A stretch of 20,000 bases of DNA, taken from an uncultured virus (IMG/VR IMGVR_UViG_3300033112_000355) (Duplodnaviria; Heunggongvirae; Uroviricota; Caudoviricetes). Position 1 is the stretch's first letter, and the number at the start of each line of letters is the position of its first letter. Shown here piece by piece: positions 3,217 to 20,000 of this stretch. The stretch is from IMG/VR virus record IMGVR_UViG_3300033112_000355. The stretch is one strand, 5' to 3'. The notes below the pieces were generated by a model, which did not search any database, had not been told where the DNA came from, and saw only the letters and a program-made list of their open reading frames with translations. The position numbers and the translations under genes were made by a program.

Positions 3217-3242
3217 GCTTTTCCTTAAGCAATGAACAAAAG

Positions 3243-3830: not shown

Positions 3831-4174
3831 AAACCGTAGAACCTTCCAAACCTGAAACCTGGTTTCTTACTGACCATCATTCCGCCTGCACCGGGTCTTC
3901 CGTAATTCCGACCACGGAGACTCGGCAGCTCAACGCCATTGATTGAGAACTTACCAACTGGAATACGAGAACCAAACCCTGGCTCATTAATGTTTTGTCG
4001 TTTCCGATATTCTCCTGCTGCTTTGGCACTAGCTATTCGCCTTCTGTTTTTATCTTCTACTCTTTCAGGATTAGATCTTTCCTGAAAAGCAAATCGTGCA
4101 GCTGCATTCAAGCGACGATTATCTCCTTGAAGAAATCGCGCATCTGCTGAATAAGTAGACTGTATTTTTTTCAA
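3827..4174 (-). CDS. Hypothetical basic (Arg/Gly-rich) protein
   Basis: 115-aa ORF convergent with dcd. TTG start has a TATAAT 23 nt upstream. Confidence 0.6.
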   Translation of the reverse strand: MKKIQSTYSADARFLQGDNRRLNAAARFAFQERSNPERVEDKNRRRIASAKAAGEYRKRQNINEPGFGSRIPVGKFSINGVELPSLRGRNYGRPGAGGMMVSKKPGFRFGRFYGF

Positions 4175-5312: not shown

Positions 5313-5975
5313 TTACTCTAAAGCATAAAAGAGTCGATCAATTTCTTGCTCTATCGGAAAACTAAGAGTGGCATCTAAACCGAATTCATTTGCAAATTCG
5401 GATAGTACATAAGGGTTGACGCGCTCTTCGAATTTGCGAATTGCATTCACCTGACGCATGGATGCTTCATAATCTCTAAAAGCTTTTAATAAAACATCTG
5501 GCGGCATCCAGGCAAGCTCATCGATGTTTGTTAAAAATACATCTCCTTCCTCTCGTCTTCTTTCTAAAAGACCGCCAATTACTTTGTGTTCATCGTCAAA
5601 AACCCAACGGTTGAACTCATGGATTACTTCAGCAAAATCTCCTCTCTCAATTGCATCGACAATTGAGCTGTACAGAAAAGCTTCCCACCCTACAGAGTGA
5701 ATGAAAGATAGTAAAGCATTCTTCATATGCGGGTCTAGATCTAATTTCAGCGCATCAAGTTCGCTGTCAATCACGTCTAGTTCTGCAAGCAAATACTCAA
5801 ATGCTTTTTTTCTTGAAACTAGCTGACCCTTTAATACGGGAGACCCATCTGGATAAAACTCTGAACCGTAACCAATTGTATAGGGTTCTCCGCCAGTGGC
5901 TGGATCAGGACATGCACGTTCATTAAAACCCTCGTACTTTTTTATGATACAAATAGCAGGAGAAAAATCGTGCAT
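5313..5975 (-). CDS. Phage lysozyme (GH24) endolysin with C-terminal extension
   Basis: IIKKYEG...PDPATGGEPYTIGYG (catalytic E/D/T region), ALLSF..SVG and GLLERRREE. Confidence 0.88.
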   Translation of the reverse strand: MHDFSPAICIIKKYEGFNERACPDPATGGEPYTIGYGSEFYPDGSPVLKGQLVSRKKAFEYLLAELDVIDSELDALKLDLDPHMKNALLSFIHSVGWEAFLYSSIVDAIERGDFAEVIHEFNRWVFDDEHKVIGGLLERRREEGDVFLTNIDELAWMPPDVLLKAFRDYEASMRQVNAIRKFEERVNPYVLSEFANEFGLDATLSFPIEQEIDRLFYALE

Positions 5976-6060
5976 GAGATACACAGAGCTGAGCTGATTA
6001 TAAGCTATTTGTAAAAGAAAATGATTGTTACTCTAGAATATGCATAACCAAACTATTTCT

Positions 6061-6243
6061 ATGACTTCACATCAGTCAAAGCAGGGTCGTGCTGGCGCAG
6101 CAAAAGCTAAGACTTCTGCTAAAGCTCCAAAGAAACTAGAGAAGACTCCTATGAATGGAAAGGCAAAAGCAAAAGGGCCAGGTAAAGAAGAGTCAATGAA
6201 GGAGAAGATGGCCCGGCTTCGTGCTATGCGTAAAAAGAAGTAA
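6061..6243 (+). CDS. Small Lys/Ala-rich basic protein
   Basis: Within ORF 6040..6243. ATG 6061 is preferred because TAGAAT lies 21 nt upstream. Confidence 0.6.
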   Translation: MTSHQSKQGRAGAAKAKTSAKAPKKLEKTPMNGKAKAKGPGKEESMKEKMARLRAMRKKK

Positions 6244-6245
6244 AA

Positions 6246-6359
6246 TTATTTTCCCTGACCGCGCAGTTTCTTTTTACCTTTCTTGGGGCGAGAATGTTTC
6301 CCTTGCCCCTGAGAGGTTTTCTTTGGCTGACCTTCAACGTAACCGCCGCTTTTAATCAT
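6246..6359 (-). CDS. 37-aa basic phage microprotein
   Basis: Manual translation: MIKSGGYVEGQPKKTSQGQGKHSRPKKGKKKLRGQGK. It has an ATGA overlap with the upstream ORF and TATAAT 21 nt upstream. It resembles PKKTRQG...RGQGK peptides recalled from cyanophages. Confidence 0.7.
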   Translation of the reverse strand: MIKSGGYVEGQPKKTSQGQGKHSRPKKGKKKLRGQGK

Positions 6360-6535
6360 TTATCAAGAGAAGCTTCACATATTATACTAAACAAAAACAG
6401 TTTCATTTGCTGTAATTTCACTTGTTCTTCTGGAGGTCTGGCAGGAGAACCAGGCCAATATTGAATGGCATCACAGACAGCCGTGTACAAAGTTCTGCAA
6501 TCTTCAATCGATAACTGCAGTTCTACACTTACCAT
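6356..6535 (-). CDS. 59-aa hypothetical phage protein (WPGSPARPPEEQ motif)
   Basis: Manual translation: MVSVELQLSIEDCRTLYTAVCDAIQYWPGSPARPPEEQVKLQQMKLFLFSIICEASLDK. It overlaps both neighbours and exactly fills the gap between them. Confidence 0.72.
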   Translation of the reverse strand: MVSVELQLSIEDCRTLYTAVCDAIQYWPGSPARPPEEQVKLQQMKLFLFSIICEASLDK

Positions 6536-6801
6536 GCTTTACAACTCCAATATCCTGCACTCATTTTATCTTTCTTTTCGTCGCATTTATGACGAGCCCT
6601 AAAGCTTTTCCTTCTTTCTGGATTATCTTTTTTGATTGACATATTGGCATCTCCAAAACGCACAATCTTTTCTTTACCTCCTGAACAAGCTTTTACGACA
6701 GATTTTTTGCCTCCTTTTACATCCCTACGCGGTTTGTTGCAAGGCATCTTATCTTTCTGAATTTTCGCAGCTTTTGCTGCTTTTAATCTTTTGTTAGACA
6801 T
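6529..6801 (-). CDS. Small basic phage protein (KIVRFG...RRKSFRARHKC...YWSCKAW)
   Basis: 90-aa Lys-rich ORF with a motif recalled from aquatic phages; function unknown. Confidence 0.8.
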   Translation of the reverse strand: MSNKRLKAAKAAKIQKDKMPCNKPRRDVKGGKKSVVKACSGGKEKIVRFGDANMSIKKDNPERRKSFRARHKCDEKKDKMSAGYWSCKAW

Positions 6802-6803
6802 AA

Positions 6804-9620
6804 TTAGAATCCAAATCCACCGAAGCCGCCAAGGCCGCCAGATGCTCCTCCTAATAACCCTCCTCCTAAGTCAGAGGTAAAGTCATCTAAGAAAGATTGA
6901 CCTGATCGCGATTTCCTTGTACCAATTCTATTATCAGTATTGTCAAAGTCGGAAAAACTATCTGGTGATGGAGGGGTAAGAGGCGCATCAAGAAAACTGC
7001 CAATTGAACTCAAAGCTGCCTGAGGACTTGAGGTGTTAAGGCCTGACAGCAAATCAAAATCTCCAAACTCAGCTTTCACTTCTTCTTTGCTTTGTCCTGG
7101 GAAGAAAGACTCATAAAACTCTTTTTCTGTTCCACGGAAGCCTGCTTGCTGAAATATTCCAAATAGACCGGCTCCAGGTCCAACTGACGCCTCTTTATCT
7201 GTTTCTCTCTCAATGTAATCTACACCCAATGTCTTTTGAGTAATTTCTTCACCTGCTTCGGCAAGTTCTTTAATTCTCTCTCTTAACTCAAGAGTTTCGT
7301 CACCAGCGATAACAGAGCTAATAGTATTTCTAATATCATCTAATTCGTCATCACCTCCTGCAAGGGCAAGTTGCCTGCCAGCAGCAGTATTGGGGCCAAT
7401 TCCTGCATCATCTAAAACGCCTTCAGTAAATTCCTCTGGCGAAATAAAATCACCAAACACAGAAGTTCCATCTCTTTCAACCTGTCCAATAAGACTTGGA
7501 ATTAGATCAAAATTTTGAAACTGTTTAATACGATCAGGGTCAATTGGATTATCAAAAGCGGCAAAGGTAATAGGCGCACCATCTAATAAAATTTCGTTGC
7601 CTTCAATGTCTTTACCTCCTCTTGTAATATCAAAAAGTGTTCTGGCAAAGCCTGCTTTATCAATTGAATATACTAAGCTGCCGTCAAATGTAAGAGAAGG
7701 CTCAACAGCAACTCCACGTGTAAGAAGAGCGTTAATATATTTCGGATCACCTGCCTGTGCTTTTTTAAGCTCTGATGCAAAAAAGTCTTTCTGAAATTCT
7801 AATTTTCTTTCATACCTAGAGCCATCTGCTGCCTTTTGTTCTTCTACAGGTCGATTAAAGAATGGATTTTCAAAAAACCGAGCGTCAAATGTTTCATTTA
7901 CTGGTTTTAAGTTATTTAAGAACTCTTGAGTCTTTTGAGTTGCAAGATTATTCAAAGAATCTTGAGTAGTCTGAGTCTGGAAAGGGTTTTGAAACTCTTC
8001 GTCAACATTAATAAAGTTAATAAATTCATTGATTGATTTAGATGCATTAAAGCGTGGGCGTAGATAATCATTGATAAAATCACGCGCAAACTGAGAATCA
8101 ACGTTTACAGCTCTAATATTTCCATTTTCATCTCTTAATCTACCTACGAAATCAAAATCTGGATTGTTTGGATCATCTATACGTTTAATTTCATCGTCTA
8201 ATTCTTTAATACGTGCATAAGGATCTAACTCTCTACCACCTACGACAAACCTAGTTCCTGTAAGTGTCTTTAAAACATCTTGCCCACCTGGTGCATTTTG
8301 TAAATATTCAACTACTTCGTCAGAGGTTTGGAAGCCAATTTCTCTCAAAAAACTATCTTTAAATTTACCCGTTTCTGTATCAAAAACTTCTCCTTTTTCT
8401 TCTAATGCACGTGATCTAAAATTTGGATTGCTTTTGTTTGCATCATAAAACTCTTTACCAAATTGACTAATAGAAATAAAATTTGGATCTCCTGGTACCA
8501 AGCCAGCTATGCGTTCGTTATACTTGGCTAATACATCATCACGACTCTGTACATAAGCTGCAAAATCATCTGAAGAAGGTATAGCATTTTCAAAGATATC
8601 TTTTTCTAATTCCAATGCTGCGAATTTTTCGTTATAATCTTTTGCGTATCTTTCAGTTAAATCTTTTTCGAAAAAATTCTGCCAATTAACAATAGTGCTA
8701 TTGCCAAAAGTGCCTAAGGCTGAATTGAATGTACCTTCAATCTGATCTCTTACGCCAGGAGGAATGCCAGGCAGATCACCAAGTAAACTGTTAGCAGCAT
8801 TTGTACCTATATTAAGAATTTCGTTAAAGCCTCCAAGATTACCTAGTAAATCAAATTGATTTTGTTGTCTCTGTGCTCGCTCAAGCCTATTAATAGTTTG
8901 TCGTAAAACATCCTCTGCAAGCAGGCCAAATTGTTCAGTCCTTTGCGTAAGGTCTTCTCCAGCTGCAGTTATAACTGCATCTTCCGTTATTTGGCCCTCT
9001 TGCGCTGCTTTGAAACCCCTAATTGCAGTTTCTGTAGCAGGGGCAGCACCTTCGAAACCTATTAATTCATCTTCTGTACCTTGAAATTTTCCCTTCTGTG
9101 CAAAAGCATTAGGTGCCCTGCCCTCTGGGATACCTTTCATCACATAGTTTCCGCCTGCAAAAGAATTGAGGTCTGTGAAACGTGCTGTGATATCTAGATT
9201 GCCTTCTGCAACTGCCTTGTCATATTCTGCTTTTACATCAGGATTGTTTTCTAAATAGAAGATAGGATCAAAAAATTTATCACCTACTCCTTCGGTTTGT
9301 CCTGGTGAAGCAGGAGCATAACCTGGTACTTGTTTAGTATCAAAAGGTTTTACAACATTTTTTTTATAAAACTTATCGAATGCTTTTAATAGTTGATTTT
9401 TACCATTTTTGCTTAAGTTGATTCCATTATTTAAAGCTGATTTAAAATTCAGATATTGATTCATTGTGCCCTGAGCTATCCTGGCCTGCAGCACAGTGAA
9501 ATTCAAAGCTTCATTAAATCTTTTTTTCTGTTTTATTTGCCTGGGAGTTCCTGTGGTTATGTCTTTTTCATTTACAGTAAAGGTATTTGTTGTAGGATCA
9601 AACGTAAATAAATCTTGCAT
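6804..9620 (-). CDS. Large acidic probable virion (internal/ejection) protein
   Basis: 938-aa ORF that lacks Cys and His and has a Gly/Phe-rich C-terminus. The function is inferred from composition and context only. Confidence 0.6.
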   Translation of the reverse strand: MQDLFTFDPTTNTFTVNEKDITTGTPRQIKQKKRFNEALNFTVLQARIAQGTMNQYLNFKSALNNGINLSKNGKNQLLKAFDKFYKKNVVKPFDTKQVPGYAPASPGQTEGVGDKFFDPIFYLENNPDVKAEYDKAVAEGNLDITARFTDLNSFAGGNYVMKGIPEGRAPNAFAQKGKFQGTEDELIGFEGAAPATETAIRGFKAAQEGQITEDAVITAAGEDLTQRTEQFGLLAEDVLRQTINRLERAQRQQNQFDLLGNLGGFNEILNIGTNAANSLLGDLPGIPPGVRDQIEGTFNSALGTFGNSTIVNWQNFFEKDLTERYAKDYNEKFAALELEKDIFENAIPSSDDFAAYVQSRDDVLAKYNERIAGLVPGDPNFISISQFGKEFYDANKSNPNFRSRALEEKGEVFDTETGKFKDSFLREIGFQTSDEVVEYLQNAPGGQDVLKTLTGTRFVVGGRELDPYARIKELDDEIKRIDDPNNPDFDFVGRLRDENGNIRAVNVDSQFARDFINDYLRPRFNASKSINEFINFINVDEEFQNPFQTQTTQDSLNNLATQKTQEFLNNLKPVNETFDARFFENPFFNRPVEEQKAADGSRYERKLEFQKDFFASELKKAQAGDPKYINALLTRGVAVEPSLTFDGSLVYSIDKAGFARTLFDITRGGKDIEGNEILLDGAPITFAAFDNPIDPDRIKQFQNFDLIPSLIGQVERDGTSVFGDFISPEEFTEGVLDDAGIGPNTAAGRQLALAGGDDELDDIRNTISSVIAGDETLELRERIKELAEAGEEITQKTLGVDYIERETDKEASVGPGAGLFGIFQQAGFRGTEKEFYESFFPGQSKEEVKAEFGDFDLLSGLNTSSPQAALSSIGSFLDAPLTPPSPDSFSDFDNTDNRIGTRKSRSGQSFLDDFTSDLGGGLLGGASGGLGGFGGFGF

Positions 9621-9629
9621 CTAACAAAA

Positions 9630-9995
9630 CTAAGCTATCTTCAATTCTACAGGACCACTGATCAAGCAATAAATATCAATGGTTTCTTGAGCCACCCAAT
9701 TATTAATTTTAATTAGCCGGGTTTCGCAAAAGAACTCCTGTTTTCTATACCACTCCTCCATCTGGTAGCTGGCTTTATTTGAATTACACCTCTGACATGC
9801 AGGGATTAAATTGTTTCTGTTGCTAGATCCCGAACGATAACGTGGTATTACGTGATCAAGAGAGGTGGCGGGAGCACCACAGTAAGCACATTTGTTATCC
9901 CATGAATTGTATATTGATTCTCTAAAACGTCGTTTGGCTCGTTTGGGCGTTAGTTCAATGAGTAGGGCAAGCGGATCCTGTTCATTGTTAAACAT
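9630..9995 (-). CDS. Free-standing HNH endonuclease (McrA-like, CxxC...DH...N...CxxCN)
   Basis: CAYCG, SLDHVIP and NNLIPACQRCNSNK. Confidence 0.9.
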   Translation of the reverse strand: MFNNEQDPLALLIELTPKRAKRRFRESIYNSWDNKCAYCGAPATSLDHVIPRYRSGSSNRNNLIPACQRCNSNKASYQMEEWYRKQEFFCETRLIKINNWVAQETIDIYCLISGPVELKIA

Positions 9996-10046
9996 GCCTC
10001 TCGAGCAGTTATCTTATTCTAATCGAATTAACTCAAAAAATCGAAT

Positions 10047-10074
10047 TTGACAAAGCACTATAAACGTATAGTGT
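10047..10074 (+). promoter_or_regulatory. Sigma70-type promoter (TTGACA-N16-TAGTGT) for the Xis-like gene
   Basis: Perfect -35 TTGACA at 10047-10052 and TAGTGT at 10069-10074. Confidence 0.55.
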
Positions 10075-10085
10075 ACATATGTACA
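10072..10085. promoter_or_regulatory. 14-bp palindrome TGTACATATGTACA; cyanobacterial LexA-box-like operator
   Basis: Perfect palindrome with a GTAC-N4-GTAC core, overlapping the -10/+1 region of the predicted promoter. Confidence 0.5.
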
Positions 10086-10102
10086 GCTGCTGCGTTTGCA
10101 GT

Positions 10103-10315
10103 ATGAAAATTTCAAAAACCTGGAAGACGGTTCAGAAAACCCTTAATGAGCTGGGAATTGAAAAGGAGACATTGTTTAAGTACAGGGACGATGGAACCTT
10201 GAAGCTTGGTCCACACTTCCTGGCTTTCTCTGATACCTATTCAAGGGATAGTTATCGCTGGAATGTTAATGCAGTTAAGGAGCACCTAACAAGCAAGGGC
10301 TTGCTCGCGGCCTAA
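10103..10315 (+). CDS. Small excisionase-like HTH protein
   Basis: WKTVQKTLNELGIEKETLFKYRDDGTLKLGPHF...YRWN. ATG 10103 lies downstream of the predicted promoter. Confidence 0.6.
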   Translation: MKISKTWKTVQKTLNELGIEKETLFKYRDDGTLKLGPHFLAFSDTYSRDSYRWNVNAVKEHLTSKGLLAA

Positions 10316-10678
10316 GTAAAAGTTATTCTTTCTATCGCTGTGTGCGGCCAGGAGTGTATCGACATCTAAGTCGGTCTTCCCTGCTTCTATAGCTCTTTCA
10401 AGCGACTTCGAAAGATTAGATAAACGGCCTTGGATATTCCGAGGCTGTTTTTTTAACTCAAAAATTACTGCCCAATGTGGATGCATTGGTTTGATGGGTC
10501 TTTTCCTTCCTTGCAAAAGGACTGAATTATCTGGTCCCCAGGAAAAGTCTTGTAATTGTGAAGGCTTTAAACCATATGTGGCAACCATGCCGTACAGCCA
10601 CGCAATGCTCTTACTGCGTTCGCCTCTATCTAAATAAAAGAAATCATCAATGATGCGTTGGTCTACTGGTGTAGCCAT
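10286..10678 (-). CDS. Degenerate/truncated tyrosine recombinase-like protein
   Basis: WLYGMVATYGLKPSQ and R.IKPMHPHW..IFEL resemble cyanobacterial integrase box I (W..GM.ATYGLRxxE) and its downstream P..P.W motif. Catalytic Arg is replaced by Lys and no canonical box II is visible. Confidence 0.55.
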   Translation of the reverse strand: MATPVDQRIIDDFFYLDRGERSKSIAWLYGMVATYGLKPSQLQDFSWGPDNSVLLQGRKRPIKPMHPHWAVIFELKKQPRNIQGRLSNLSKSLERAIEAGKTDLDVDTLLAAHSDRKNNFYLGREQALAC

Positions 10679-10736
10679 GGCTAGAACCACAGAGATCCAT
10701 TTGTAAAAGCTTGCGTCTAGTTTAAACCATTTAAAT

Positions 10737-10967
10737 CTATGCTGGGGTGCCTCCTGTTATAGTCGCTGCCCAAGCATCGCCCATTGCACCGATGGTTGAT
10801 GTTTCTCCTGAACCAAAAGGTAAGTTGACTGTGTCTCCCGCGTGGTATCGCGAAGGGTTACCTGAAAGCTTCACAGGGCTTTTACCAAATTCTCTTTTGG
10901 TTAGCTGGCCTTCTGAAAGCTCAACTCTTGTTTGGATAATATCTCCGAATCCAGGTGTGCTAGACAT
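10737..10967 (-). CDS. Hypothetical 76-aa protein
   Basis: Likely start is ATG 10967 (MSSTPGFGDIIQ...), overlapping the stop of the upstream gene by 8 nt. Confidence 0.65.
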   Translation of the reverse strand: MSSTPGFGDIIQTRVELSEGQLTKREFGKSPVKLSGNPSRYHAGDTVNLPFGSGETSTIGAMGDAWAATITGGTPA

Positions 10968-12549
10968 TAGAAGGTTTGCCTCCAGTAGCAGGTACGTAAG
11001 CATTGCCGTCTTTATCATACATAGTAAAACCTTCAATTTTAATAAAGCTAGCAGGGATATTCAGCATCTTCTGCATCATGCTGATCATGATGGGGCTTTG
11101 TACATTCAGCGGAGGCACATCCATATAAGACAAACCATATGTGGTTATGTTGTTAAAAGCTTTTCTTTGATCTCTTTCTGTCTCATCAACTAATCTTTGC
11201 TCCCATGCCGCTTGTTCAGTTGTGAATGCAGGGAAATCAGAAGGCTCAGGAGGAAATAAATCGTCTGTATATTTCATGGCATAGATGTGCTTGCAGTATC
11301 TATACTCATCTAATAGATGGCTCCAGGTATCTTGAACTTGAATTAATTGATTAGGTTGACCAGCGGCGGCTGGAGGAATTGTGTCATAATCACCATATTT
11401 AACCATGCCTTCACTGCGTGGTACCGGAGCATTTGGATCCGAAGGAAGATCAGTACCCCTGGTATAAACACTTCCGAAGTCACTGAACACACCGGGAAAA
11501 TCACGGTTTGTATTCGACGGAATGTTGTTTATTTCTTTAGCATTTACTGATTGGTTATACGGTAACTCATATCCAGAAGGAGCGACAATTGTTAACGCTC
11601 TATCTTGTAAAGCTTGCTGCATAATGCGCTCATCAATTTCACCTGCAGTCGAGGTGACTTCATAGCGTCCCGGTTTTAATGTTGCACATTTAGTGAGAGG
11701 AAATGTCGGACTTTTTCTTTTTCCTAAAAACGTAGAAACATAGAAGTACTGACGACGCGTAAAGTCCTGACAGCTGCACGCATACTTAGATCCATTAATA
11801 AAAAATCTTCCTACCTGAGGGGCTCTTTGTGCAGGCGTAATTAATACACTATCAAACGTCGCCTCAACAGAACCTTGCTTACGTAAAATCAATACGCCGT
11901 TATAGGGTTCAACGGAATCTAATACCGCTGCAGTATATCCATAACGGATGCCTGTATTTGGATCGATTGTTTCTTTTGTAATTGGAATACCCGCTTGCGT
12001 CAGAACCCTGTCTTCTAAAACATCTCCATTCAATGGCGTTAGATTAGGTTGATCGCCTGGGGTTTCGATGAACAGAGGAGGAGGTAAAGGATTATTTGCA
12101 TCCCATGTGCCACTTAACTGCACACGCCAGAAATGTCCTGATTCCGTTACAGAAGCAATTGATAGATCTACATTATTCTGATCTACTAAATTATCAAATC
12201 TCAAGCTTCCTGCAAGAACAGATCCGCACCAATGCATACCAAGTTCTTTGTTCTTAGTCGGAAATCCTCTGATAATTCCTGCCATGACAGGGGGATTCTC
12301 GCCGCTCTGTGTTGTACCTGAGGGTAGAGGAATATTATAAGAAAAAGGATATTCAAATGCAGCATAAGCAAGATTAGAAGTCGCTAACTCATAACCTCTT
12401 CTCCAGCGGTTCCAGGATGCTTCTTTATTGCTCGAATAAAGAGAGTCAGCAACACTTCCACCGAACTCACCTAATATAGGAAAAGGTCCTAATGTTGCTT
12501 TGCTTTTTCGTGGCTCTTTAAATCCGAATGAATTACCACGTGGAGCCAT
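10960..12549 (-). CDS. Phage protein with split SWIM-type zinc finger
   Basis: 529-aa ORF with YACSCQDF (CSC at 11770-11778) and YCKHIYA (CKH at 11287-11295). Confidence 0.65.
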   Translation of the reverse strand: MAPRGNSFGFKEPRKSKATLGPFPILGEFGGSVADSLYSSNKEASWNRWRRGYELATSNLAYAAFEYPFSYNIPLPSGTTQSGENPPVMAGIIRGFPTKNKELGMHWCGSVLAGSLRFDNLVDQNNVDLSIASVTESGHFWRVQLSGTWDANNPLPPPLFIETPGDQPNLTPLNGDVLEDRVLTQAGIPITKETIDPNTGIRYGYTAAVLDSVEPYNGVLILRKQGSVEATFDSVLITPAQRAPQVGRFFINGSKYACSCQDFTRRQYFYVSTFLGKRKSPTFPLTKCATLKPGRYEVTSTAGEIDERIMQQALQDRALTIVAPSGYELPYNQSVNAKEINNIPSNTNRDFPGVFSDFGSVYTRGTDLPSDPNAPVPRSEGMVKYGDYDTIPPAAAGQPNQLIQVQDTWSHLLDEYRYCKHIYAMKYTDDLFPPEPSDFPAFTTEQAAWEQRLVDETERDQRKAFNNITTYGLSYMDVPPLNVQSPIMISMMQKMLNIPASFIKIEGFTMYDKDGNAYVPATGGKPSNV

Positions 12550-12551
12550 GG

Positions 12552-13337
12552 TTAGAAGAAGCCGCCTTGTGCAACTACTGTGATGCCCGGCGTATAGCCA
12601 GAGGGATAAGTATTAGTTGGGAGGATGCCTGCATATAAACGATCTCCCTTTTCTAAATAAACACCACGGGCACGGACAGGAGATCCGTTTGTTAAGGAAC
12701 TTACGTCTCCCGCTGCTGGTACTGGAGCGCTTAGTTGAGGCAGTACATCAGTGCAGTCCACATCTTGCTGTCCAGAAGCTAAATATTTGGTAAACACCAA
12801 AACATAATCACCACTTGCAGGAATAGGGTTGGTAGTTCCGCGAGTGTGATAGAACGATACGGTAACGCCGTATTGAGCATATAAAAATTGATTCTGGTAA
12901 GAGAAGCCAGAAGCGATGCCACCGGAATAATTTAAAGCTGTATTGACACCTGTTAAGGTTGCTGAGCCTGTATAGGTGTAGTAACCTGCGCCGCTAAAAG
13001 GTGCTCCAGCTCCTGTCAAGACTCCTGTTTCTTGAATAAATACAGTATTACCACTCTCTAAAATAATGTCAGTTCCTGACGTTGTAGTGTTTACAGTGTA
13101 GTCAGGTGGGATCTGATAATCACTACGAATAAGCTTAACGGAATCTACAACACCACCACTATTATTGTCGTCGGACAATGCAGCATCCATGTCAACAATC
13201 AGAGCCGGTGCCTGACCGCCTTGCACATCCAATGACTTGTTTGCAGAACTACCAGCAACTTGAGTAGTAAGTTTTGAGTGATCGAGAAAAGGACGATCAA
13301 TAAACAGTGGCTGCTTGTTGGTATTCGTAGATGTCAC
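12552..13337 (-). CDS. Hypothetical, probably structural, protein
   Basis: 261-aa T/S/G/Y-rich ORF in the structural block. TAAAAT lies 22 nt upstream of the GTG. Confidence 0.7.
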   Translation of the reverse strand: MTSTNTNKQPLFIDRPFLDHSKLTTQVAGSSANKSLDVQGGQAPALIVDMDAALSDDNNSGGVVDSVKLIRSDYQIPPDYTVNTTTSGTDIILESGNTVFIQETGVLTGAGAPFSGAGYYTYTGSATLTGVNTALNYSGGIASGFSYQNQFLYAQYGVTVSFYHTRGTTNPIPASGDYVLVFTKYLASGQQDVDCTDVLPQLSAPVPAAGDVSSLTNGSPVRARGVYLEKGDRLYAGILPTNTYPSGYTPGITVVAQGGFF

Positions 13338-13371
13338 TTTATTTCACTGAATAATTTTTATTTTACCAGAA

Positions 13372-13686
13372 CTAAACGCCTAAGAACCCGCCGAAATTAA
13401 AACCTGGAATATTATTGTTCATAAGACCTTTGGGAATAGTTTGACCAACCTTAGCAGCGAATAATGCATTAGGGTTATTGCTTAATGCTGCAAAAGTTCC
13501 AAAAGCTTCCCCTCGCATAAAACCTTTATTAGTATTGCCATCAAGATCAAAATCCATTTGATTCATTTGAAGTTGCTGCAAAGCATCAGAACGATCCATG
13601 GGAGTTCTGTACCTGCTAACCTGTGCTCTATAAACATCTCCAGGTAAATAGTTACCTGAATCGATGTAGTCGTAAAAACTAGCCAT
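13372..13686 (-). CDS. Hypothetical protein (possible virion component)
   Basis: 104-aa ORF coupled to the upstream gene by a TGATG overlap. Confidence 0.65.
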   Translation of the reverse strand: MASFYDYIDSGNYLPGDVYRAQVSRYRTPMDRSDALQQLQMNQMDFDLDGNTNKGFMRGEAFGTFAALSNNPNALFAAKVGQTIPKGLMNNNIPGFNFGGFLGV

Positions 13687-14306
13687 CAGAATAAACCTCC
13701 AAGTGGATTACGTAAAAGTTGCGAAAGGAATTGACCTTTAAGCTGCTCAACAAAGTTATCTTTAAGGGATGTAGCTTTTTTGTCTACTTTCTCGTATTGA
13801 TCAGTATCGTATCCTAGATTAGAAAGAATTTCATTAACACTCTTTCTTGTTTGTTTAGAGGGATCAGTGGAAGTTTGATCATAGATTACAGCGTTGTCAG
13901 GCACCATCGGAGGCGGATTACCTGGAGTATAAGGTACCTGATCCAGCATTTTTGGAACATACTGCTCGTACGCTCCTGATTTATAAACTGACCACGCACC
14001 TAAACCCTGTTGATCGTAAATAGCCTTAGCTGCTTTTGCGTTCGTTAAAGGATCAAAGAGTTCTTCATTTGATCTAATTCCAAACTGTTCTCGCCTTTCA
14101 GGACCCATTCCTCCAAGCATATTGATTTGGAAGATGCCATAACTTTGGTCGCCTGTATCTACATTCGGGTTAAACGCTTGTGGATTCAGGCTTGACTCCG
14201 CAGTTCCAATTCCAACCATTGTTGGAATCAAATTTTCTTTGAAACCTGCTTGGCGCAAATAGCCTGCAAGCTGTTCCCGAGAAAGCTTCTGCGACTTATC
14301 GGCCAT
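13686..14306 (-). CDS. Lytic transglycosylase/lysozyme-like (SLT-type) virion-associated hydrolase
   Basis: AESSLNPQA (catalytic ES), SYGIFQIN, LFDPLTNAKAA and GAWSVY. Confidence 0.85.
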   Translation of the reverse strand: MADKSQKLSREQLAGYLRQAGFKENLIPTMVGIGTAESSLNPQAFNPNVDTGDQSYGIFQINMLGGMGPERREQFGIRSNEELFDPLTNAKAAKAIYDQQGLGAWSVYKSGAYEQYVPKMLDQVPYTPGNPPPMVPDNAVIYDQTSTDPSKQTRKSVNEILSNLGYDTDQYEKVDKKATSLKDNFVEQLKGQFLSQLLRNPLGGLF

Positions 14307-15405
14307 ACCCAGGTCCTCCTGGACGGAAATTGCTTAACTGTTTAAGATACATTGAACGGTCTTCTGGACTGAGAACTGACTCAAGTCCAGGCTCGGAACC
14401 CATCCCTGCTGTCTGCTGCTCAATCATTCCATTACGGTAATAATCGGAAAGCGCCTGAGCAGAACTCTGCTGCACTCCGACAGGATTCTCCATATTGTAA
14501 TTCTTCCCTTGCATCGTTGGATTAGTCTGGTCATAAACAAGACCATCCATCAAGGGGTTACGAGTCTTAGGTGTCAGCATATCTCCATAGAGAGCCCGGT
14601 TAATCATCATTCCTTCGTCTGCGGAATAGTTAATCATCGGGGCACCTGATCTGAAATAAGGATCATTCTGTTGTGCAACACGTGAAACTTCTTGTTGATA
14701 TGCCCTATCCTCTAAATTTTTACGGGAAGGAATAACTTGTTCTCTATACTGATCAATTGTTAAATCTGGATTAAATCCGTCAATTGTGAAAACACCCCTG
14801 CGAGGCTCATTCGTAGGGGTTGGAGGTCCGTACTGGCCAGCCGCACCAGGCTGGGGAACTGGCCCAATAAATCCAGGCGTTGCTGAATAAGCCGTATTAT
14901 CTGCACCGCTGCTTGCACCCTTTTTATTTCCACTAACTGCTCTTTGGATAAGACCAGGAATTGCTGCATAACCTTCTCCTCGACCGAGGCTATCTGTAAG
15001 ACCTTTTGCAGTATCATAAAAGTCAACGGCAGCTCCAATAGGACCTACAACTTTACCTAAGTTTTTTAATACTGGAGCAGCACTTTTTACAGCGCCTGGC
15101 AACCTTCTAGTTCCTTGAGGAGTAACGTCAACAACTGATACCCTATTAACAGGTCCACCATATCCAGCTCCTTGGTTAGCCATGGGGGCTAATCCGCCTC
15201 TATTCGTAGGAACTAATGCGCCGCCTTGGTTTCCCATGGAGGCCATAGAACTAGGGCCTGGAGGGAAAAGAGCACCTCTATTACTTGTAGCTAAGGGACC
15301 AGGAATGTAATCGTTTCTTACATTCAAAGGCATCGACATGTTGACTCCAGGGATCATCCCTGTGAACTGAGCCGTTCCTCTCATCAAAACTTCGTATGGA
15401 TTCAT
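14296..15405 (-). CDS. Hypothetical Gly/Pro-rich probable internal virion protein
   Basis: 369-aa ORF lacking Cys, His and Trp, in the structural block. Confidence 0.65.
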   Translation of the reverse strand: MNPYEVLMRGTAQFTGMIPGVNMSMPLNVRNDYIPGPLATSNRGALFPPGPSSMASMGNQGGALVPTNRGGLAPMANQGAGYGGPVNRVSVVDVTPQGTRRLPGAVKSAAPVLKNLGKVVGPIGAAVDFYDTAKGLTDSLGRGEGYAAIPGLIQRAVSGNKKGASSGADNTAYSATPGFIGPVPQPGAAGQYGPPTPTNEPRRGVFTIDGFNPDLTIDQYREQVIPSRKNLEDRAYQQEVSRVAQQNDPYFRSGAPMINYSADEGMMINRALYGDMLTPKTRNPLMDGLVYDQTNPTMQGKNYNMENPVGVQQSSAQALSDYYRNGMIEQQTAGMGSEPGLESVLSPEDRSMYLKQLSNFRPGGPGYGR

Positions 15406-15407
15406 GA

Positions 15408-15869
15408 TTAACGGTAGGTAGCGTTGAGGTAAACATTTGAACCTACAGCGTTATCTGCAGGACCTGGTAGTGCTTGAATAAACTCAGCACCTGAGCGCTC
15501 ATAGCGATAGCGTGCTTGGAAAGGATCCTTGTAGTTAGGCACATACAAGATTGCCGCTAAAGCATTAGTCTCATACAGATAAATTTCATCCCATACTTTC
15601 AACGCTTCTCGAGCATTGCTGGATGAAATCGTCCGATCGACATCACCCTCGATCTTTTCAATACGAGTTGATGGAGAGGTTGCAACTTCAGTCTTACGCT
15701 CAGCTGTATCGCAACGACCTAAGTGATAAATAATCTTGCGATAAAAGAATGAGTCAGGAATAGTATTCATTGACTCTTCCAGGCGAGCGTAATCACCTGC
15801 TGGCACAGACACAGTGAAGTATCCTAAATGATAACGTACTCGACTTTTATCAAAAGTAGATAACTGCAC
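15408..15869 (-). CDS. Possible head-completion/adaptor protein
   Basis: 153-aa ORF with N-terminal LSTFDKSRVRYHLGY downstream of the capsid genes. The function is inferred from position. Confidence 0.5.
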   Translation of the reverse strand: MQLSTFDKSRVRYHLGYFTVSVPAGDYARLEESMNTIPDSFFYRKIIYHLGRCDTAERKTEVATSPSTRIEKIEGDVDRTISSSNAREALKVWDEIYLYETNALAAILYVPNYKDPFQARYRYERSGAEFIQALPGPADNAVGSNVYLNATYR

Positions 15870-15896
15870 TGGCCGACCTCTTATCTTCTTATTATA

Positions 15897-16634
15897 TTAG
15901 ATTAAACCTTGAAAGTACTGGTACATGTCATTGGTTTGTTGAGACAATGAAGGTGATGAATTAATGTATGAACCAAGAAAGCTCCCAGCTCCGAGCGGAT
16001 TTAGAGCTTGCGAAACTAATTGCATCTTTAAATTATCTTTTAAAGATTCTTTGGTGCTCTTCTTCTTTTTTGTTCTGCCTTGTCTACTGTCTAATAATCC
16101 TTGGGCATAAGCTTGATAAATATCTCTTTCACGCTCAACTTCTGAGTAAGGCTGCGACAATGGAGCATTGGGATCCATTATTGACTCAGTCTTTTTTGAA
16201 GGGTCAAGATGGAGAACTTGGATGTCATATGGACGGCCCTGTTCATCTGTAACAGATACTGTGCCCATTCCATCTCCAGGCATAAAAGATCCGGCTCCCT
16301 TGTAGCCAATCTGTGTGCCGATAGGAATACCGCCTACATCAATACCAGAGTGAAATGTAGAAGCTCCTTTGGTAGGTGCAACTCTAGTCCCATATTCCGA
16401 TGTGATTGGATAATTCCAGCTCCATTGGCCCTTTTCATTTTTTTGGACTAAGGGTGTCTGTCCTTCACCAACTACAACGTTCTGTAAGATAGACCTTGCA
16501 TATCTTGGGTTAATCTTTTCGCCCTTCTTTTCACCAAACTGTGGGATTACTCTGAAGTCAAGGTGTGGCCCAGTCGAAGCAAACCGATCCTTCTTAGGAT
16601 CAATAACACCTCCTATAGGTACAAACTGTGCCAC
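15897..16634 (-). CDS. M23-family peptidase-like protein, circularly permuted
   Basis: STGPHLDFRV...INP precedes PITSEYGTR...FHSGID...GT...LHL, the reverse of the canonical motif order. Confidence 0.72.
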   Translation of the reverse strand: MAQFVPIGGVIDPKKDRFASTGPHLDFRVIPQFGEKKGEKINPRYARSILQNVVVGEGQTPLVQKNEKGQWSWNYPITSEYGTRVAPTKGASTFHSGIDVGGIPIGTQIGYKGAGSFMPGDGMGTVSVTDEQGRPYDIQVLHLDPSKKTESIMDPNAPLSQPYSEVERERDIYQAYAQGLLDSRQGRTKKKKSTKESLKDNLKMQLVSQALNPLGAGSFLGSYINSSPSLSQQTNDMYQYFQGLI

Positions 16635-16667
16635 AACAACTACCTTTTTATTAATTATAAAATAAAT

Positions 16668-16688
16668 AAGCCCTCTTAAAGAGGGCTT
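16668..16688 (-). terminator. Probable intrinsic terminator
   Basis: AAGCCCTCT-taa-AGAGGGCTT inverted repeat just after the stop at 16692, followed on the minus strand by ATTTATTTT. Confidence 0.7.
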
Positions 16689-16691
16689 GTA

Positions 16692-17102
16692 TCAGATGCG
16701 AATCAAATCAGCCGCCATAACCGCTTCCCAATCAACTGTCTTAACAGTCTTCAATTGATCAAGGTTAGAGAATCTTTCACCCGAAAGAGACATCTGAAGT
16801 TCCTTGATCTTCTTGGCTGTTTTGATGCCAACGCCTTTGATATGATCAGCGATCATTTGAGCAGAAGCGTTATTGATGTTCAGTCTTGTATCAGGTGGAA
16901 AGTCCCTAGGCGTTTCTTTGTTGGCTCGATCTTTAACTTGTAAAGACTTTACCTTCTTGGTAGCTGTCGAATCCTCTTCAATTTCTTCACGCCAAACAGT
17001 GAAAAGGCGACCTTCGGAGTCTTGGACCATCCTCCAATCGCCGTTGTCCCACTCCGTAATTACTTTAAGAGTGGCCCCCGTTTTTTTGTGACGGTATAAC
17101 AT
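16692..17102 (-). CDS. Helix-hairpin-helix (ComEA-like) DNA-binding domain protein
   Basis: RLNINNASAQMIADHIKGVGIKTAKKI...RFSNLDQL matches the ComEA/HHH_3 pattern. Confidence 0.75.
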   Translation of the reverse strand: MLYRHKKTGATLKVITEWDNGDWRMVQDSEGRLFTVWREEIEEDSTATKKVKSLQVKDRANKETPRDFPPDTRLNINNASAQMIADHIKGVGIKTAKKIKELQMSLSGERFSNLDQLKTVKTVDWEAVMAADLIRI

Positions 17103-17130
17103 AAGACCAGTAAAATTTTACTGGTCTTAT
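17101..17130. repeat. 30-bp perfect palindrome (terminator or regulatory hairpin)
   Basis: ATAAGACCAGTAAAATTTTACTGGTCTTAT is its own reverse complement and overlaps the ATG at 17102. Confidence 0.85.
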
Positions 17131-17140
17131 TTTAACCTAT

Positions 17141-17953
17141 TCAGCTGCCGCTGCTAACAATTTTGTTAGGCAGATAAGCTTCAATGTCGTTGTAATCAGC
17201 AGCAACATCAGGTTGGATGTAGCAAAGCTCAACAACAATGTAGCCGTAGTTTCCAGCAGTGGCGTCTCCAGAGGAGATGTAGAAACCACCAGAGACAGCG
17301 GTAGCGTTACCGGAAGCCTTTGCGTAGACCTTGAAGGTCGTGGCAGCGGTGTTCTCGCGGTAAACCTTACCTGCAGTGACACCAGCAGCGCCGGTAGCAG
17401 TCAGGAAAGGAGTTGTGCTGGTAGCAGAAGAGCCACCTGCAAAGTAGATTTCACCAGCCTGGCTACCAGAAGTGGTAGAGGAAAGGTTGGCTTGGATCAG
17501 TCCCTCACCGACGCCAGAAGCGGCGACAGGTGAACCACTGTTATCGCGACCGAAGGAGATCACGTTTCCAGTAGCTGCATACACACCAGAGGCAGTGCGG
17601 TTGTCACCCCAGCCAGAGGCGATGGCAACAGTGGCGCGATAGCCGTAGGCAGGAAGGTCAGAAGAACCGGAGATCACCATTCCGGTGATGTTGGTACGGG
17701 TGTCGTCATTCCGGTAGGGGGAGGGGACGATCACGTCAGCGGAGTTAACAGCACCACCACCAGAGGTTGTGGTGACTTTCACATAACCGCGCTGTTGGAA
17801 ATAGCGGTAACCGGGGATGGCCAGCACAGAAGTGGGGCCAGCTTTGGAAGCATTGTTGGTACCGTCTTGATTAGAATCAATATTCTTGTACCAACCGTTT
17901 AAAGCTTCCGTCCAGTTACCTGGATAGATTTTCTTAGCGGACAAGTAGGTCAT
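17141..17953 (-). CDS. Capsid-associated structural protein (decoration/minor capsid, putative)
   Basis: 270-aa S/T/G/A-rich ORF directly downstream of the capsid gene, with an AGGAGA RBS and a similar GC-richer codon bias. Confidence 0.6.
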   Translation of the reverse strand: MTYLSAKKIYPGNWTEALNGWYKNIDSNQDGTNNASKAGPTSVLAIPGYRYFQQRGYVKVTTTSGGGAVNSADVIVPSPYRNDDTRTNITGMVISGSSDLPAYGYRATVAIASGWGDNRTASGVYAATGNVISFGRDNSGSPVAASGVGEGLIQANLSSTTSGSQAGEIYFAGGSSATSTTPFLTATGAAGVTAGKVYRENTAATTFKVYAKASGNATAVSGGFYISSGDATAGNYGYIVVELCYIQPDVAADYNDIEAYLPNKIVSSGS

Positions 17954-17993
17954 TTATCTCTCCTATTGAGGTTTTCGTTTTACTTAATTAGGC

Positions 17994-19980
17994 TCAAATC
18001 GTGCCGTCGTCCTGAACAAAGCTGAATGCAGTGGTGATGAAGTCCTTGTTGAGGATTTCGAAACCAGCATAGAGTTGCCAGATAAGGATGATGAACCGGC
18101 TGAAGTCATCATTGTTGTTAATGAGGACTTGAGCGTTGGGGCCGCCGATACCAACACCGATGGACTGAGGACCGAAGAAGTAACCCTGAGCAACTTCCTT
18201 GGAGGCATAGCTGCTGCCGCCATCGAAAGAGGTGGTGACGTTCTTGGTGGGGAAGTTCGTTGACTCGTAGAACTTGACACCTTCGAACTGCACGCCGGTA
18301 GGCATGACTGGCTCACCAGCCAGGAAGTAGGCTTGGCCAGCCTGAGGACCCATGTAGAAGCTGGAGTTATTAGGCATCATGGGGTTGCCCATGTACATGC
18401 CTTGTCCAGGATTGCCACTGTAGCGAGCGATCTCGCGGAAGTCCTCGTCACGACGCAGGTGCATCATGAAGGTGGGATCGCAGATACAACGATACAGACC
18501 GTCAGCGAAAGTCGGCACGTTGCGCTTACGCATTTGCTTGACAACAGTCAGCAGGTCGGTACGCACGGAGAACTGCTGAACTTGAGCAGCATACTCAGCA
18601 GCGGTGTAGGAAATACGGCCAGTGGCATCCTTCTCTTTGCTGCCAGCAAAGTAGTAACCACCGATGTCATCAGAAGCCGCGCCATTGGCTTCAGCTTTGG
18701 CCATTTCGTCAATGAAGACGCGGTCACGCCAACGACGATAATCGTCCAGCAGAGTCAGAGAACCGATGCTCTGGTGGAACATGTTCAGGTTGCCGGTGTC
18801 TAACAGCAGGCGCTGTGCAGTCACCAGGGTCTCCCGGGCAATTTTAAAAGTAGAAGGCTGGGTAGGATCGCCAGGATCTGCAGGACCAGTGTACTCCTTC
18901 AGCACAACAAGCACCTTCTCCTTGGTGATGTTGCGGCTGTTGGCGGTACCGATGGTCTGATCGGAGACGCGCTCACGGCTCTCCTTGGTTCCAGGGGTTC
19001 CCCAGAACTTATAGCGGTCTAGCTGAACGGTTTGACCGGGCTGGCGAGTGAAGTCATGAACGACCACAGGCTCAGCGGCCATCTCGCAGATATAAGCGGG
19101 GTGAGGGCGGTAAAGCTCAGCACCTAGCAGTTTTGGAAAATCGTTCTCCTGGTCTCCAATTTCTTAGAGGGGTGGACCATCTCTTCATCCCAGTGGGATG
19201 CCGGACGCTGTATCTGGTATTACGTTACAAGATCGTGTAACCCCCAGTGGCCTCTGCACGTTCCAATCACGGGCTTGATTGGCTTCGCTCAGGATTACCC
19301 TCGGCTTTACGTTAGGGCTTCCCTGAATTCATCCAGTTTTCACTTAACGATTGCTCGATAAGGTGACAACGCTTGAGAAGTTCAGGTGAGGTAAAATTTG
19401 GAAACTTGTTCATAAACAAAATGAATCCAAAATTAGTTTCGGGATTTGGTAACCTCTACTTGACTGAAACTGGTAAAGCTTTTGAAAAACACCTGGACAA
19501 AGATGACCAAGAATATTTTCAAGAACTACCCGTACAATCCACTAGCAAATATGATCGAATCTCAGTTCTTGTTGACGGTAAAAGAAAAAGATTTAATTTA
19601 CACGTTTTAATGGCGGTTGCTTTCTTAGGTTTAGACTTGCGGTCCCATGGGACACACAATTTTTCTTTACAAGTTAATCACATAGATAACAATAAAAGAA
19701 ATAACAATCTTAATAACTTAGAGATTGTTACTAAACAAGAAAACCTTACAAGGACCTGGATCGAAAATGATCAAACTCACAAGGGTTTTGCAAGTAAAGG
19801 GAAGGCGAAAAAATCACTTAGGAAATTTTCAACCGAAGATGTGATTCAGATTAAAGCTTTAAAAGAAGCTGGTCTCTCTTATAGAAAGATTGCTGAAAAG
19901 TTTAACTGCAATCACGGAGCTATTTACCAAATGCTGAAAGGAAATACCTACCAGGATCTGAACTAGCTATCAATGAACAC
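17994..19980 (-). CDS. Major capsid protein, spliced: exon 1 19969..19980 plus exon 2 17994..19145, 387 aa
   Basis: GGAGG (19991-19995) lies 10 nt before GTG TTC ATT GAT. The joined product is MFID-NDFPKLLGAELYRPHPAYICEMAAEPVVVHDFTRQPGQTVQLDRY. Size, PG.TV motif, GVQFEGVKFYES motif and codon bias fit an HK97-fold capsid protein. Confidence 0.85.
19146..19968 (-). ncRNA. Group I self-splicing intron, 823 nt
   Basis: The 5' exon ends in U and the intron ends in G. Core elements: P GAAUUCAGGG (19321-19330), Q AAUCCUGAGC (19287-19296), R GUGCAGAGGCCA (19248-19259), S GAAGAGAUGGUCC (19174-19186). P1, P3, P7, P8, P9 and P10 pairings were checked by eye. Confidence 0.93.
19421..19966 (+). CDS. Intron-encoded HNH homing endonuclease (I-HmuI/HNH_3-like) with C-terminal HTH, antisense to the intron
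   Basis: LHVLMAVAFL...VNHIDNNKRNNNLNNLEIVTKQEN plus HTH GLSYRKIAEKFNCNHGAIYQM. ATG 19421 is preferred, with TAAAAT 23 nt upstream. Confidence 0.9.
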   Translation: MNPKLVSGFGNLYLTETGKAFEKHLDKDDQEYFQELPVQSTSKYDRISVLVDGKRKRFNLHVLMAVAFLGLDLRSHGTHNFSLQVNHIDNNKRNNNLNNLEIVTKQENLTRTWIENDQTHKGFASKGKAKKSLRKFSTEDVIQIKALKEAGLSYRKIAEKFNCNHGAIYQMLKGNTYQDLN

Positions 19981-20000
19981 TTTGGTTTATCCTCCAGTGT

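Follow-up and report, generated by a model that had tools for sequence, protein, structure and literature searches.

We studied a 20,000-nucleotide (nt) stretch of DNA from an uncultured virus of the class Caudoviricetes (IMG/VR record IMGVR_UViG_3300033112_000355), which we call the window. Its minus strand carries a gene for the major head protein, and four codons after its start this gene is interrupted by an 823-nt group I intron. Within the intron, on the opposite strand, lies a predicted gene for an endonuclease of the HNH type. We consider it very likely that this arrangement is a mobile group I intron with its homing endonuclease gene, residing in the major head protein gene of a cyanophage of the S-EIV1 lineage.

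A capsid gene with a four-codon first exon

The capsid gene appears to begin with the codons GTG TTC ATT GAT (M F I D), with ten bases separating GTG 19980 from a GGAGG Shine-Dalgarno sequence. The pattern GGAG[GA]AT upstream of this start is conserved in both intronless and intron-bearing relatives. In the unspliced strand, the four codons run directly into AGC TAG. The capsid open reading frame (ORF) called by program, 19082-17994 on the minus strand, encodes 362 amino acids (aa) from an ATG (MAAEPV...). Its frame is open for 21 codons further upstream of ATG 19082, up to a TAA at 19166-19164, and there is no start codon (ATG, GTG or TTG) between this TAA and position 19145. The predicted product of the spliced gene is 387 aa long.

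Viruses that carry the intron probably translate the 21 codons that separate ATG 19082 from the 3′ splice site. Among 18 carriers, 18 of the 21 residues are invariant, and the distinct codon variants comprise 23 synonymous versus 9 non-synonymous ones. Conservation with mostly synonymous variation points to translation of this stretch, and its translation would in turn require splicing.

The identity of the host gene is indicated by a match of its product to PHROG 1357 (phrog_1357), a major head protein family (2.3e-13, residues 31-373); a Pfam scan of the window's capsid protein gave no family match. An AlphaFold model built on 39 sequences had a predicted local distance difference test (pLDDT) score of 80 and a predicted template modelling (pTM) score of 0.77. 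When this model was compared with the PDB by Foldseek, the best match was 8i4l_A, the capsid of cyanophage P-SCSP1u (E 5.4e-14), and the next best were the capsids of Pan3, Ralstonia GP4 and N4. At least 326 matches had E ≤ 0.001, and the top ones were all phage capsids or encapsulins. Judging from the PHROG match and the model, the intron interrupts the gene of an HK97-fold major head protein.

Intronless relatives and the splice boundaries

The nearest annotated phage is Synechococcus phage S-EIVl (KJ410740.1; locus L001), to which our query matched only from query position 858. This corresponds to position 19143 of the window, the exon 2 start. In S-EIVl the DNA is uninterrupted, reading cactggaggataaacacaaGTG TTC ATT GAT ACC GAC TTT CCT AAG. 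Its capsid ORF (L001 2987-4138; 383 aa) has a GTG start and begins MFIDTDFPKILGAELYRPHPAYICEM... (MFIDTDFPK...). In the GenBank record of this phage the capsid gene is not given as one coding sequence; the region is covered by two entries named ‘hypothetical protein’, at 2912-3673 on the minus strand and at 3668-4138 on the plus strand.

A scan of IMG/VR with the exon 2 protein yielded at least 599 relatives, and we analysed 80 loci, referred to here as the first set. The junction is contiguous in 63 of them, with the sequence (G/A)TG TTY MTN GAY followed by AAY or ACC GAY TTY CC, so that the N-terminus reads M-F-I/L-D-N/T-D-F-P-K. In the other 17, exon 2 is immediately preceded by the intron core. 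More distant homologues, at 44-52% identity, start with MF.NETDFP, MF.IDEIFP or MTFIDNQFP, and the four residues of the micro-exon are therefore the family's own N-terminus. Most of the 120 close homologues listed are about 387 aa long, whereas the closest ones (P0015, P0059 and P0072), which bear the intron, are called as 362 aa.

Alignment alone leaves the splice boundaries ambiguous by one base, because the intron and exon 2 both begin with A. The rules for group I introns, namely a U before the 5′ splice site and a G at the end of the intron, place the boundaries between U19969 and A19968 and between G19146 and A19145. The junction found in the carriers, TTYATTGAT/AACGAY (the slash marks the splice site here and below), is present in 24 of 64 empty sites. 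In 5 of the 64, the upstream half ends in GAC and would be without the U needed at the splice site.

Ribozyme structure and subgroup

The Rfam model for group I introns (RF00028) matches positions 19385-19153 of the minus strand with 81.2 bits, compared with a gathering score of 50 (E 1.4e-19), and the alignment covers model positions 1-253 of 253. This is the sole Rfam match within the window. The record nearest to the window's assembly, G001 (5.6 kb, 7% complete), gave no RF00028 match. P1 comprises seven pairs, including the U19969.G wobble at the 5′ splice site. The placement of the splice site in P1 is independently fixed, since the intronless alleles give the junction. The guide region (19371-19364) is invariant in 16 of 16 aligned introns. 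An extension of P1, formed by AGUUCAG and CUGAACU, closes a loop of 572 nt. An equivalent stem, GUUCAG/CUGAAC, closes a short hairpin in L057, a mini-intron that lacks the endonuclease ORF.

Covariation was analysed over the final ~250 nt of the intron, in an alignment whose 16 rows (10 of them distinct) represent the window and 15 loci. The structure that was tested has 62 pairs in 11 helices (P2, P3, P4, P5, P6, P6a, P7, P7.1, P7.1a, P8 and P9), with P3/P7 as a pseudoknot. Standard pairs occupy 98.4% of 620 cells, versus 25.8-42.6% after a shift of the partners by 1-3 columns. Eight pairs are altered on both sides, of which four are in P2 and one each in P6, P7, P7.1a and P9; the compensatory change in P7.1a is from U-A to A-U. 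The covariation score was reached by none of 500 shuffles. In addition, the minimum-free-energy (MFE) fold of the mini-intron recovers P2-P6a, P7.1, P8 and P9. The fold is thus supported by covariation, and at the level of sequence the intron is confirmed as a member of group I.

The core looks like subgroup IA and not like the IC3 introns of tRNA-Leu genes. In the 1990 scheme of Michel and Westhof, subgroup IA is reportedly marked by an extra hairpin, P7.1/P7.2 or P7.1/P7.1a, between P7 and P3′, which is where the window's intron has its P7.1/P7.1a insertion. Subgroup IA is the usual type in phages, and IC3 is the tRNA-Leu type. A review (PMC3984707) names P7.1 and P7.2 among the elements by which group I introns are classified. 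All relatives of the intron that blastn returned from the phage collection are themselves phage introns. One relative is in Vibrio phage 1.187.O (MG592553.1, L082), whose terminase gene is annotated in three pieces. Two blastn pieces within its positions 1501-2348 match the window's intron core, which suggests that its packaging gene contains related, unannotated group I introns.

An earlier note, based on the window's letters, had proposed a group I intron in the major capsid gene, placed after a four-codon micro-exon. The features it listed (GGAGG, GTG TTC ATT GAT, AGC TAG, TAA, the helices and the terminal G) are all located where it placed them, and its proposal is borne out by the above-threshold match to the Rfam covariance model, the intronless junctions and the covariation. 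It had expected intronless homologues to have a contiguous N-terminus instead of one at MAAEPV, as we saw in S-EIVl and the 63 IMG/VR loci. It had also predicted that automatic annotation would truncate the capsid protein by 25 aa, which happened to the three intron-bearing homologues named above. Its remark that phage group I introns mostly occupy DNA-metabolism genes or psbA, and structural genes more rarely, agrees with the literature. By contrast, the likeness it saw to the cyanobacterial tRNA-Leu intron is unsupported, given the P7.1/P7.1a hairpin and the blastn relatives.

An antisense gene inside the intron

The earlier note overlooked an HNH gene on the opposite strand, within the 572 nt between the two strands of the P1 extension. 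A plus-strand ORF (19373-19966) lies between the micro-exon and the core, and its conserved start is ATG 19421 (GTG in L003). The product matches Pfam HNH_3 (28.5 bits, cut-off 24.8) and the HNH endonuclease family PHROG 59 (phrog_59; 1.8e-24). Among solved structures, I-HmuI (1u3e) is the only match below E 0.001 (E 1.3e-4, residues 42-175 versus 37-159). This alignment spans the motif V-x-H-x-D-x-N-K-x-N-N...N, whose H...N...N residues are kept in 10 of 10 alleles. A C-terminal helix-turn-helix scores below the Pfam cut-off (HTH_38, 25.2 versus 27).

The ten distinct alleles all have 181 codons and no insertions or deletions. The ratio of non-synonymous to synonymous divergence (dN/dS) is 0.06-0.19 in all comparisons with dS greater than 0.3, dS reaches values above 1 between clades, and the gene is under purifying selection. 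Based on the family matches, the intact 181 codons and the low dN/dS, this is probably a working gene. Its product would be an I-HmuI-like HNH endonuclease of 181 aa with a C-terminal helix-turn-helix and a putative nuclease activity.

The gene is antisense to the intron as well as to the structural module, in which the other ORFs of at least 100 aa (5313-19082) are mostly on the minus strand. Its last codons and stop sit inside the P1 extension stem and P1. The palindrome CTAG at 19963-19966 provides two stops: the minus-strand UAG that ends read-through from the micro-exon, and the plus-strand TAG that ends the HNH gene. In the ORF-less mini-introns described below, CTGG stands in place of CTAG (4 or 5 of 6, by 5′-end sequence).

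Upstream of the HNH gene, a TAnnnT hexamer occurs 29-32 nt before the ATG in all 8 distinct alleles and is a candidate −10 element. A TTGAGC-N17-TGn context accompanies it in 4 of the 8, all in clade B, and is absent from the window. The 23 nt before the ATG (19398-19420, plus strand; TTGGAAACTTGTTCATAAACAAA) are much better conserved across clades than the preceding 15 nt, and clade B has a perfect 14-nt palindrome there, TTGTTTATAAACAA. Possible roles of this conserved stretch are those of an operator, an RNA hairpin or a leader.

Distribution and mobility in phage populations

Both intron ends are present in 15 of the 17 carriers in the first set; L019 and L032 are cut by contig ends. Fourteen of these introns are 823-826 nt long and contain the ORF, which is antisense in the window and in all 14 loci. 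The remaining one, L057, is the ORF-less intron of 276 nt, and its 5′ end (AGCUGGUUCAG) is as in the full introns. Since L057 retains the first bases of the HNH gene's 3′ end, it is a deletion derivative.

For a second IMG/VR set, an invariant 26-mer of the core was used as query. It occurred in at least 120 stretches, from which 80 loci were fetched; some contigs are common to the first set. The start of capsid exon 2 lies at most 330 nt downstream in 75 of the 80, and the other 5 are cut by contig ends. In none of the 80 loci was the intron in any other gene. Among the 55 introns with both ends, 49 are 821-827 nt long and 6 are ORF-less, measuring 275-277 nt. An antisense HNH-like ORF is found in all 49 of the ORF-bearing ones. 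The intron's 3′ end, ACCAGGAG, is shared by 54 of the 55. Every carrier that includes the 5′ end has kept the micro-exon and the GGAGG.

On a maximum-likelihood tree of exon 2 with 82 rows, the presence of the intron needs at least 6 changes, whether gains or losses; the starred branches force 6. One informative case involves L071, which has the intron, and L072, which does not. They are about 0.01 apart on the exon 2 tree. In the 85 columns that adjoin the 5′ splice site, L071 is identical at 75 of 76 positions to L057, a carrier from another capsid clade. Compared with L072, its nearest relative by capsid, it is identical at 66 of 76, with 7 gap columns in addition. At columns −240 to −125 the affinities are reversed (80 of 86 to L072 versus 39 of 71 to L057). 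It follows from this switch in flank identities that the intron changed backgrounds and took ~85-120 nt of 5′ flank along, a co-conversion tract of the kind that homing predicts. In exon 2, no co-conversion tract is evident for the pair L071 and L072: counted in 100-nt bins from the splice site, their mismatches number 2, 1 and 1 in the first three.

The intron at L008 1675-2500 is a recombinant. It combines a ribozyme of the window's clade (clade A), with P9 CUUCAA...UUGGAG, and a clade-B-like HNH gene. The dS of this gene is 0.42 to L076 versus 1.77 to the window. These mixed modules imply that ribozyme and HNH gene recombine. Judging by sequence comparison, the element as a whole appears to be mobile.

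A model of splicing and homing, and its alternatives

We propose the following course of events. Translation of the capsid pre-mRNA, made from the minus strand, would start at GTG 19980, yield MFID and then enter the intron. A ribosome on unspliced RNA would be stopped by the in-frame UAG two codons into the intron (MFIDS stop). In the first step of splicing, guanosine would attack at U19969; in the second, the freed exon would attack the bond after omega-G19146, aligned by P10 (AACG:CGUU). The ligated exons would read GUG UUC AUU GAU AAC GAU and encode the 387-aa capsid protein. The HNH gene would be transcribed from its own start, opposite to late capsid transcription. During a mixed infection, its product would introduce a cut or a nick into intronless capsid alleles close to TTCATTGAT/AACGAT, and repair from intron-bearing genomes would copy the intron and ~85-120 nt of 5′ flank into the empty allele.

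Several points weigh against this reading. Exon ligation is deduced from sequence and conservation, and both the cutting or nicking and its target site are predicted. Because P1, P10, omega-G, P4, P5, P7.1 and P8 show no variation in the alignment, covariation speaks neither for nor against them. In addition, the 16 introns fall into two clades, which means that the compensatory changes represent few independent events. The subgroup is a tentative call from the P7.1/P7.1a insertion and general definitions of the subgroups. Finally, a consensus scan for promoters and terminators in 18900-20000 gave no canonical sigma-70 promoter upstream of the HNH gene; it gave one weak plus-strand site, inside the HNH ORF.

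RNA-labelled sequencing runs were also compared with the locus. Among the Logan contigs of runs X4, X2, X1 and X7 that correspond to 18500-20000, no contig joins 19969 to 19145, and each of the four runs has contigs in which the 3′ splice site is spanned in unspliced form (records 1, 6, 10 and 17). The unspliced contigs may reflect DNA carry-over or pre-mRNA, and rare forms may be dropped from contigs. An alternative with which the lack of a spliced contig would be compatible is that the intron is a dead relic, with the micro-exon unused and the capsid protein made from ATG 19082 as a 362-aa product (MAAEPV...). This ATG is a standard start, and gene callers give exactly that product for P0015, P0059 and P0072. 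Such a relic is nonetheless extremely unlikely, because the 21 codons upstream of the ATG are under purifying selection in the 18 carriers, the full ribozyme core is retained with compensatory changes, no carrier with a 5′ end has lost the micro-exon or the GGAGG, and the longer N-terminus is found throughout the family, down to 44% identity.

One could also place the 5′ splice site near 19385, with a real intron that consists of only the ~240-nt core, and regard the HNH gene as a free-standing intergenic gene. The Rfam alignment does begin at 19385 and draws a local P1 there, but that P1 has several non-standard pairs, and upstream of 19385 there is no start codon or frame that continues into exon 2. 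Given also that intronless alleles join 19969 straight to 19145 and that L057 has the 5′ end of the full introns, 276 nt from omega-G, we find this possibility hardly credible.

A subtler alternative accepts splicing and supposes that the antisense HNH protein is no longer a homing enzyme. In that case the protein could regulate capsid expression or have become a domesticated nuclease, with ordinary recombination as the only means by which the intron spreads. The antisense orientation, the sub-threshold helix-turn-helix, the lack of a canonical promoter in the window and a nuclease activity that is still putative would all fit. Yet the patchy distribution, with its six or more changes, and the sharp 5′ tract that accompanies the intron are what homing gives. 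Moreover, the motif aligned with I-HmuI is kept in all ten alleles, and ORF-less mini-introns are a minority (6 of 55). We therefore think that loss of homing is very unlikely, and favor the mobile intron with a probable homing endonuclease gene.

The backwards orientation of the HNH gene could itself be functional. The sequence UCCUGGU (19956-19950) is the exact complement of ACCAGGA (19153-19147), which lies just before omega-G. In the second set, mini-introns included, UCCUGGU is invariant in 55 of 55 introns and ACCAGGA in 54 of 55; hence there is no covariation signal. Both 7-mers are kept in mini-introns that have lost the ORF, and they are paired only in the MFE fold of the mini-intron. 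Read backwards, UCCUGGU corresponds to the Y-Q-D codons of the HNH gene. The gene's final codons (Y Q D L N stop) also form a strand of the P1 extension, and its start signals lie where the P1 extension and the guide region are read in reverse complement. It is conceivable that one piece of DNA has three uses: it would encode protein, clamp the 3′ splice site to P1 and, through convergent transcription or RNA duplexes, act as a switch that separates endonuclease and capsid synthesis in time. We regard this idea as speculative and rather unlikely.

Coordinates and neighboring genes

The features of the locus are collected in Table 1. Downstream of the capsid module is a minus-strand ORF of 245 aa (16634-15897), whose position matches that of the ‘peptidase M23 family’ gene of S-EIVl (L001 5507-6253). 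No Pfam or PHROG family was matched by the pair of ORFs (17141-17953 and 16692-17102) that separate it from the capsid gene.

Table 1 Features of the intron-bearing capsid locus (positions in the window; a slash within a sequence marks the 5′ splice site)
Feature	Position	Strand	Basis or remark
Shine-Dalgarno GGAGG of capsid gene	19995-19991	−	direct reading
Exon 1, GTG TTC ATT GAT (M F I D; GTG start and three codons)	19980-19969	−	contiguous with exon 2 in intronless alleles
P1, 5′ strand, UGAU/AGC	19972-19966	−	complementary to GUUGUCA; no variation among introns that have both ends
Group I intron, 823 nt, A19968 to omega-G19146	19968-19146	−	intronless alleles, Rfam RF00028, covariation
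P1 extension, 5′ strand, AGUUCAG	19964-19958	−	complementary to CUGAACU; overlaps last HNH codons
Predicted HNH homing endonuclease gene, antisense to intron, 181 codons and TAG	19421-19966	+	Pfam, PHROG, 1u3e match, selection
Candidate −10 element TAAAAT for HNH gene	19392-19397	+	weak candidate; 29 nt before ATG
P1 extension, 3′ strand, CUGAACU	19385-19379	−	pairs with AGUUCAG
P10 partner CGUU	19371-19368	−	pairs with exon 2 AACG, 19145-19142
Internal guide sequence GUUGUCA (P1, 3′ strand)	19370-19364	−	direct reading
Ribozyme core P2-P9	19363-19153	−	read from sequence, pair counts, mini-intron MFE fold
P2	19362-19343	−	core helix
P3, CUGGAUG:CGUCCGG	19336-19330 with 19207-19201	−	core helix
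P4, P5, P6/P6a	within 19363-19153	−	core helices
P7, GAGGCCA:UGGUCC, bulged A	19254-19248 with 19179-19174	−	core helix
P7.1/P7.1a hairpin, 34 nt, between P7 and P3′	19247-19214	−	insertion relative to Rfam consensus
P8	19200-19186	−	core helix
P9	19169-19154	−	core helix
Omega-G	19146	−	directly before exon 2
Exon 2, major head protein gene, 383 codons and TGA	19145-17994	−	phrog_1357, AlphaFold model, Foldseek

Comparison with known systems

Introns in capsid genes have precedents. Pope et al. (2013, PMC3706429) describe an intron of ~820 bp in the major capsid gene of LittleE, a mycobacteriophage of Cluster J, as ‘most likely a group I’. Its splicing was demonstrated by reverse-transcription PCR and N-terminal sequencing, and it contains a LAGLIDADG-type endonuclease gene that is said to lie ‘on the bottom strand’ and to be ‘transcribed in the leftwards direction’. 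The authors also report a related, ORF-less intron of 265 bp in a tail gene of this phage cluster, and cite a capsid-gene intron in lactococcal phage Tuc2009. The LittleE intron, so described, resembles ours in its size, its capsid-gene location, the U before the 5′ splice site, the G at its end, its antisense endonuclease gene and its absence from related phages. They differ in that the LittleE enzyme is LAGLIDADG-like, whereas ours is of the HNH (I-HmuI-like) type, and in that the LittleE intron lies deeper in the gene, after the prohead-processing site, while ours follows codon 4. The LittleE host is an actinobacteriophage, compared with a cyanophage here. Splicing is demonstrated there and deduced here. 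Conversely, the intron type is ‘most likely’ group I there and established by the Rfam model and covariation here.

The intron within SPO1's DNA polymerase gene, which encodes I-HmuI (1u3e), is likewise a phage group I intron whose enzyme has an N-terminal HNH and a C-terminal DNA-binding part; the sequence identity of I-HmuI to the window's HNH protein is low. I-HmuI is a nicking enzyme whose gene lies on the same strand as its intron and in a DNA-metabolism gene, unlike the antisense gene in a capsid gene described here. Homing of the SPO1/SP82 introns by a nicking endonuclease is the subject of a title in the reference list of PMC12908238.

Antisense endonuclease genes inside group I introns are also found in nuclear ribosomal DNA, according to PMC9548176. 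Those introns differ from ours in being eukaryotic and located in rRNA genes, and their nucleases belong to another family (His-Cys box) and are expressed via spliceosomal introns and polyadenylation. The segD gene of phage T4, as portrayed by Edgell et al. (2010, PMC2988022), is the one T4 endonuclease gene that points against its neighbors. It resembles our HNH gene in being a homing-type gene that opposes late capsid genes (23 and 24) and for which no own promoter has been found, but it is free-standing, of the GIY-YIG family and outside any intron.

A literature search, whose reach did not extend to the original S-EIV1 paper, returned no paper on a capsid intron in S-EIV1-like cyanophages. 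The words antisense, opposite and capsid are absent from the review cited above (PMC3984707). According to PMC3706429, capsid-gene group I introns, one of them with an antisense endonuclease gene, have already been published. What characterizes the present case is the HNH-type enzyme in the P1 loop, the four-codon exon and the widespread cyanophage lineage. We see the locus as a well-supported new example of a known layout.

Implications

The HNH case in a cyanophage joins one published phage capsid-gene intron with an antisense endonuclease gene, which suggests that this layout is recurrent. For the lineage itself, abundant (at least 599 IMG/VR relatives) and little studied, the intron has a practical consequence: gene callers cut 25 residues off the capsid protein. 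Even the type phage S-EIVl has its capsid gene mis-annotated. Surveys that use the capsid gene as a marker, as well as structural work on the lineage, should use the spliced 387-aa form. The locus also offers a natural population series of what is probably one homing element, comprising empty sites, full introns with an endonuclease gene, recombinants, ORF-less mini-introns and an apparent co-conversion tract. It would therefore be good material with which to study the homing cycle in uncultured phages.

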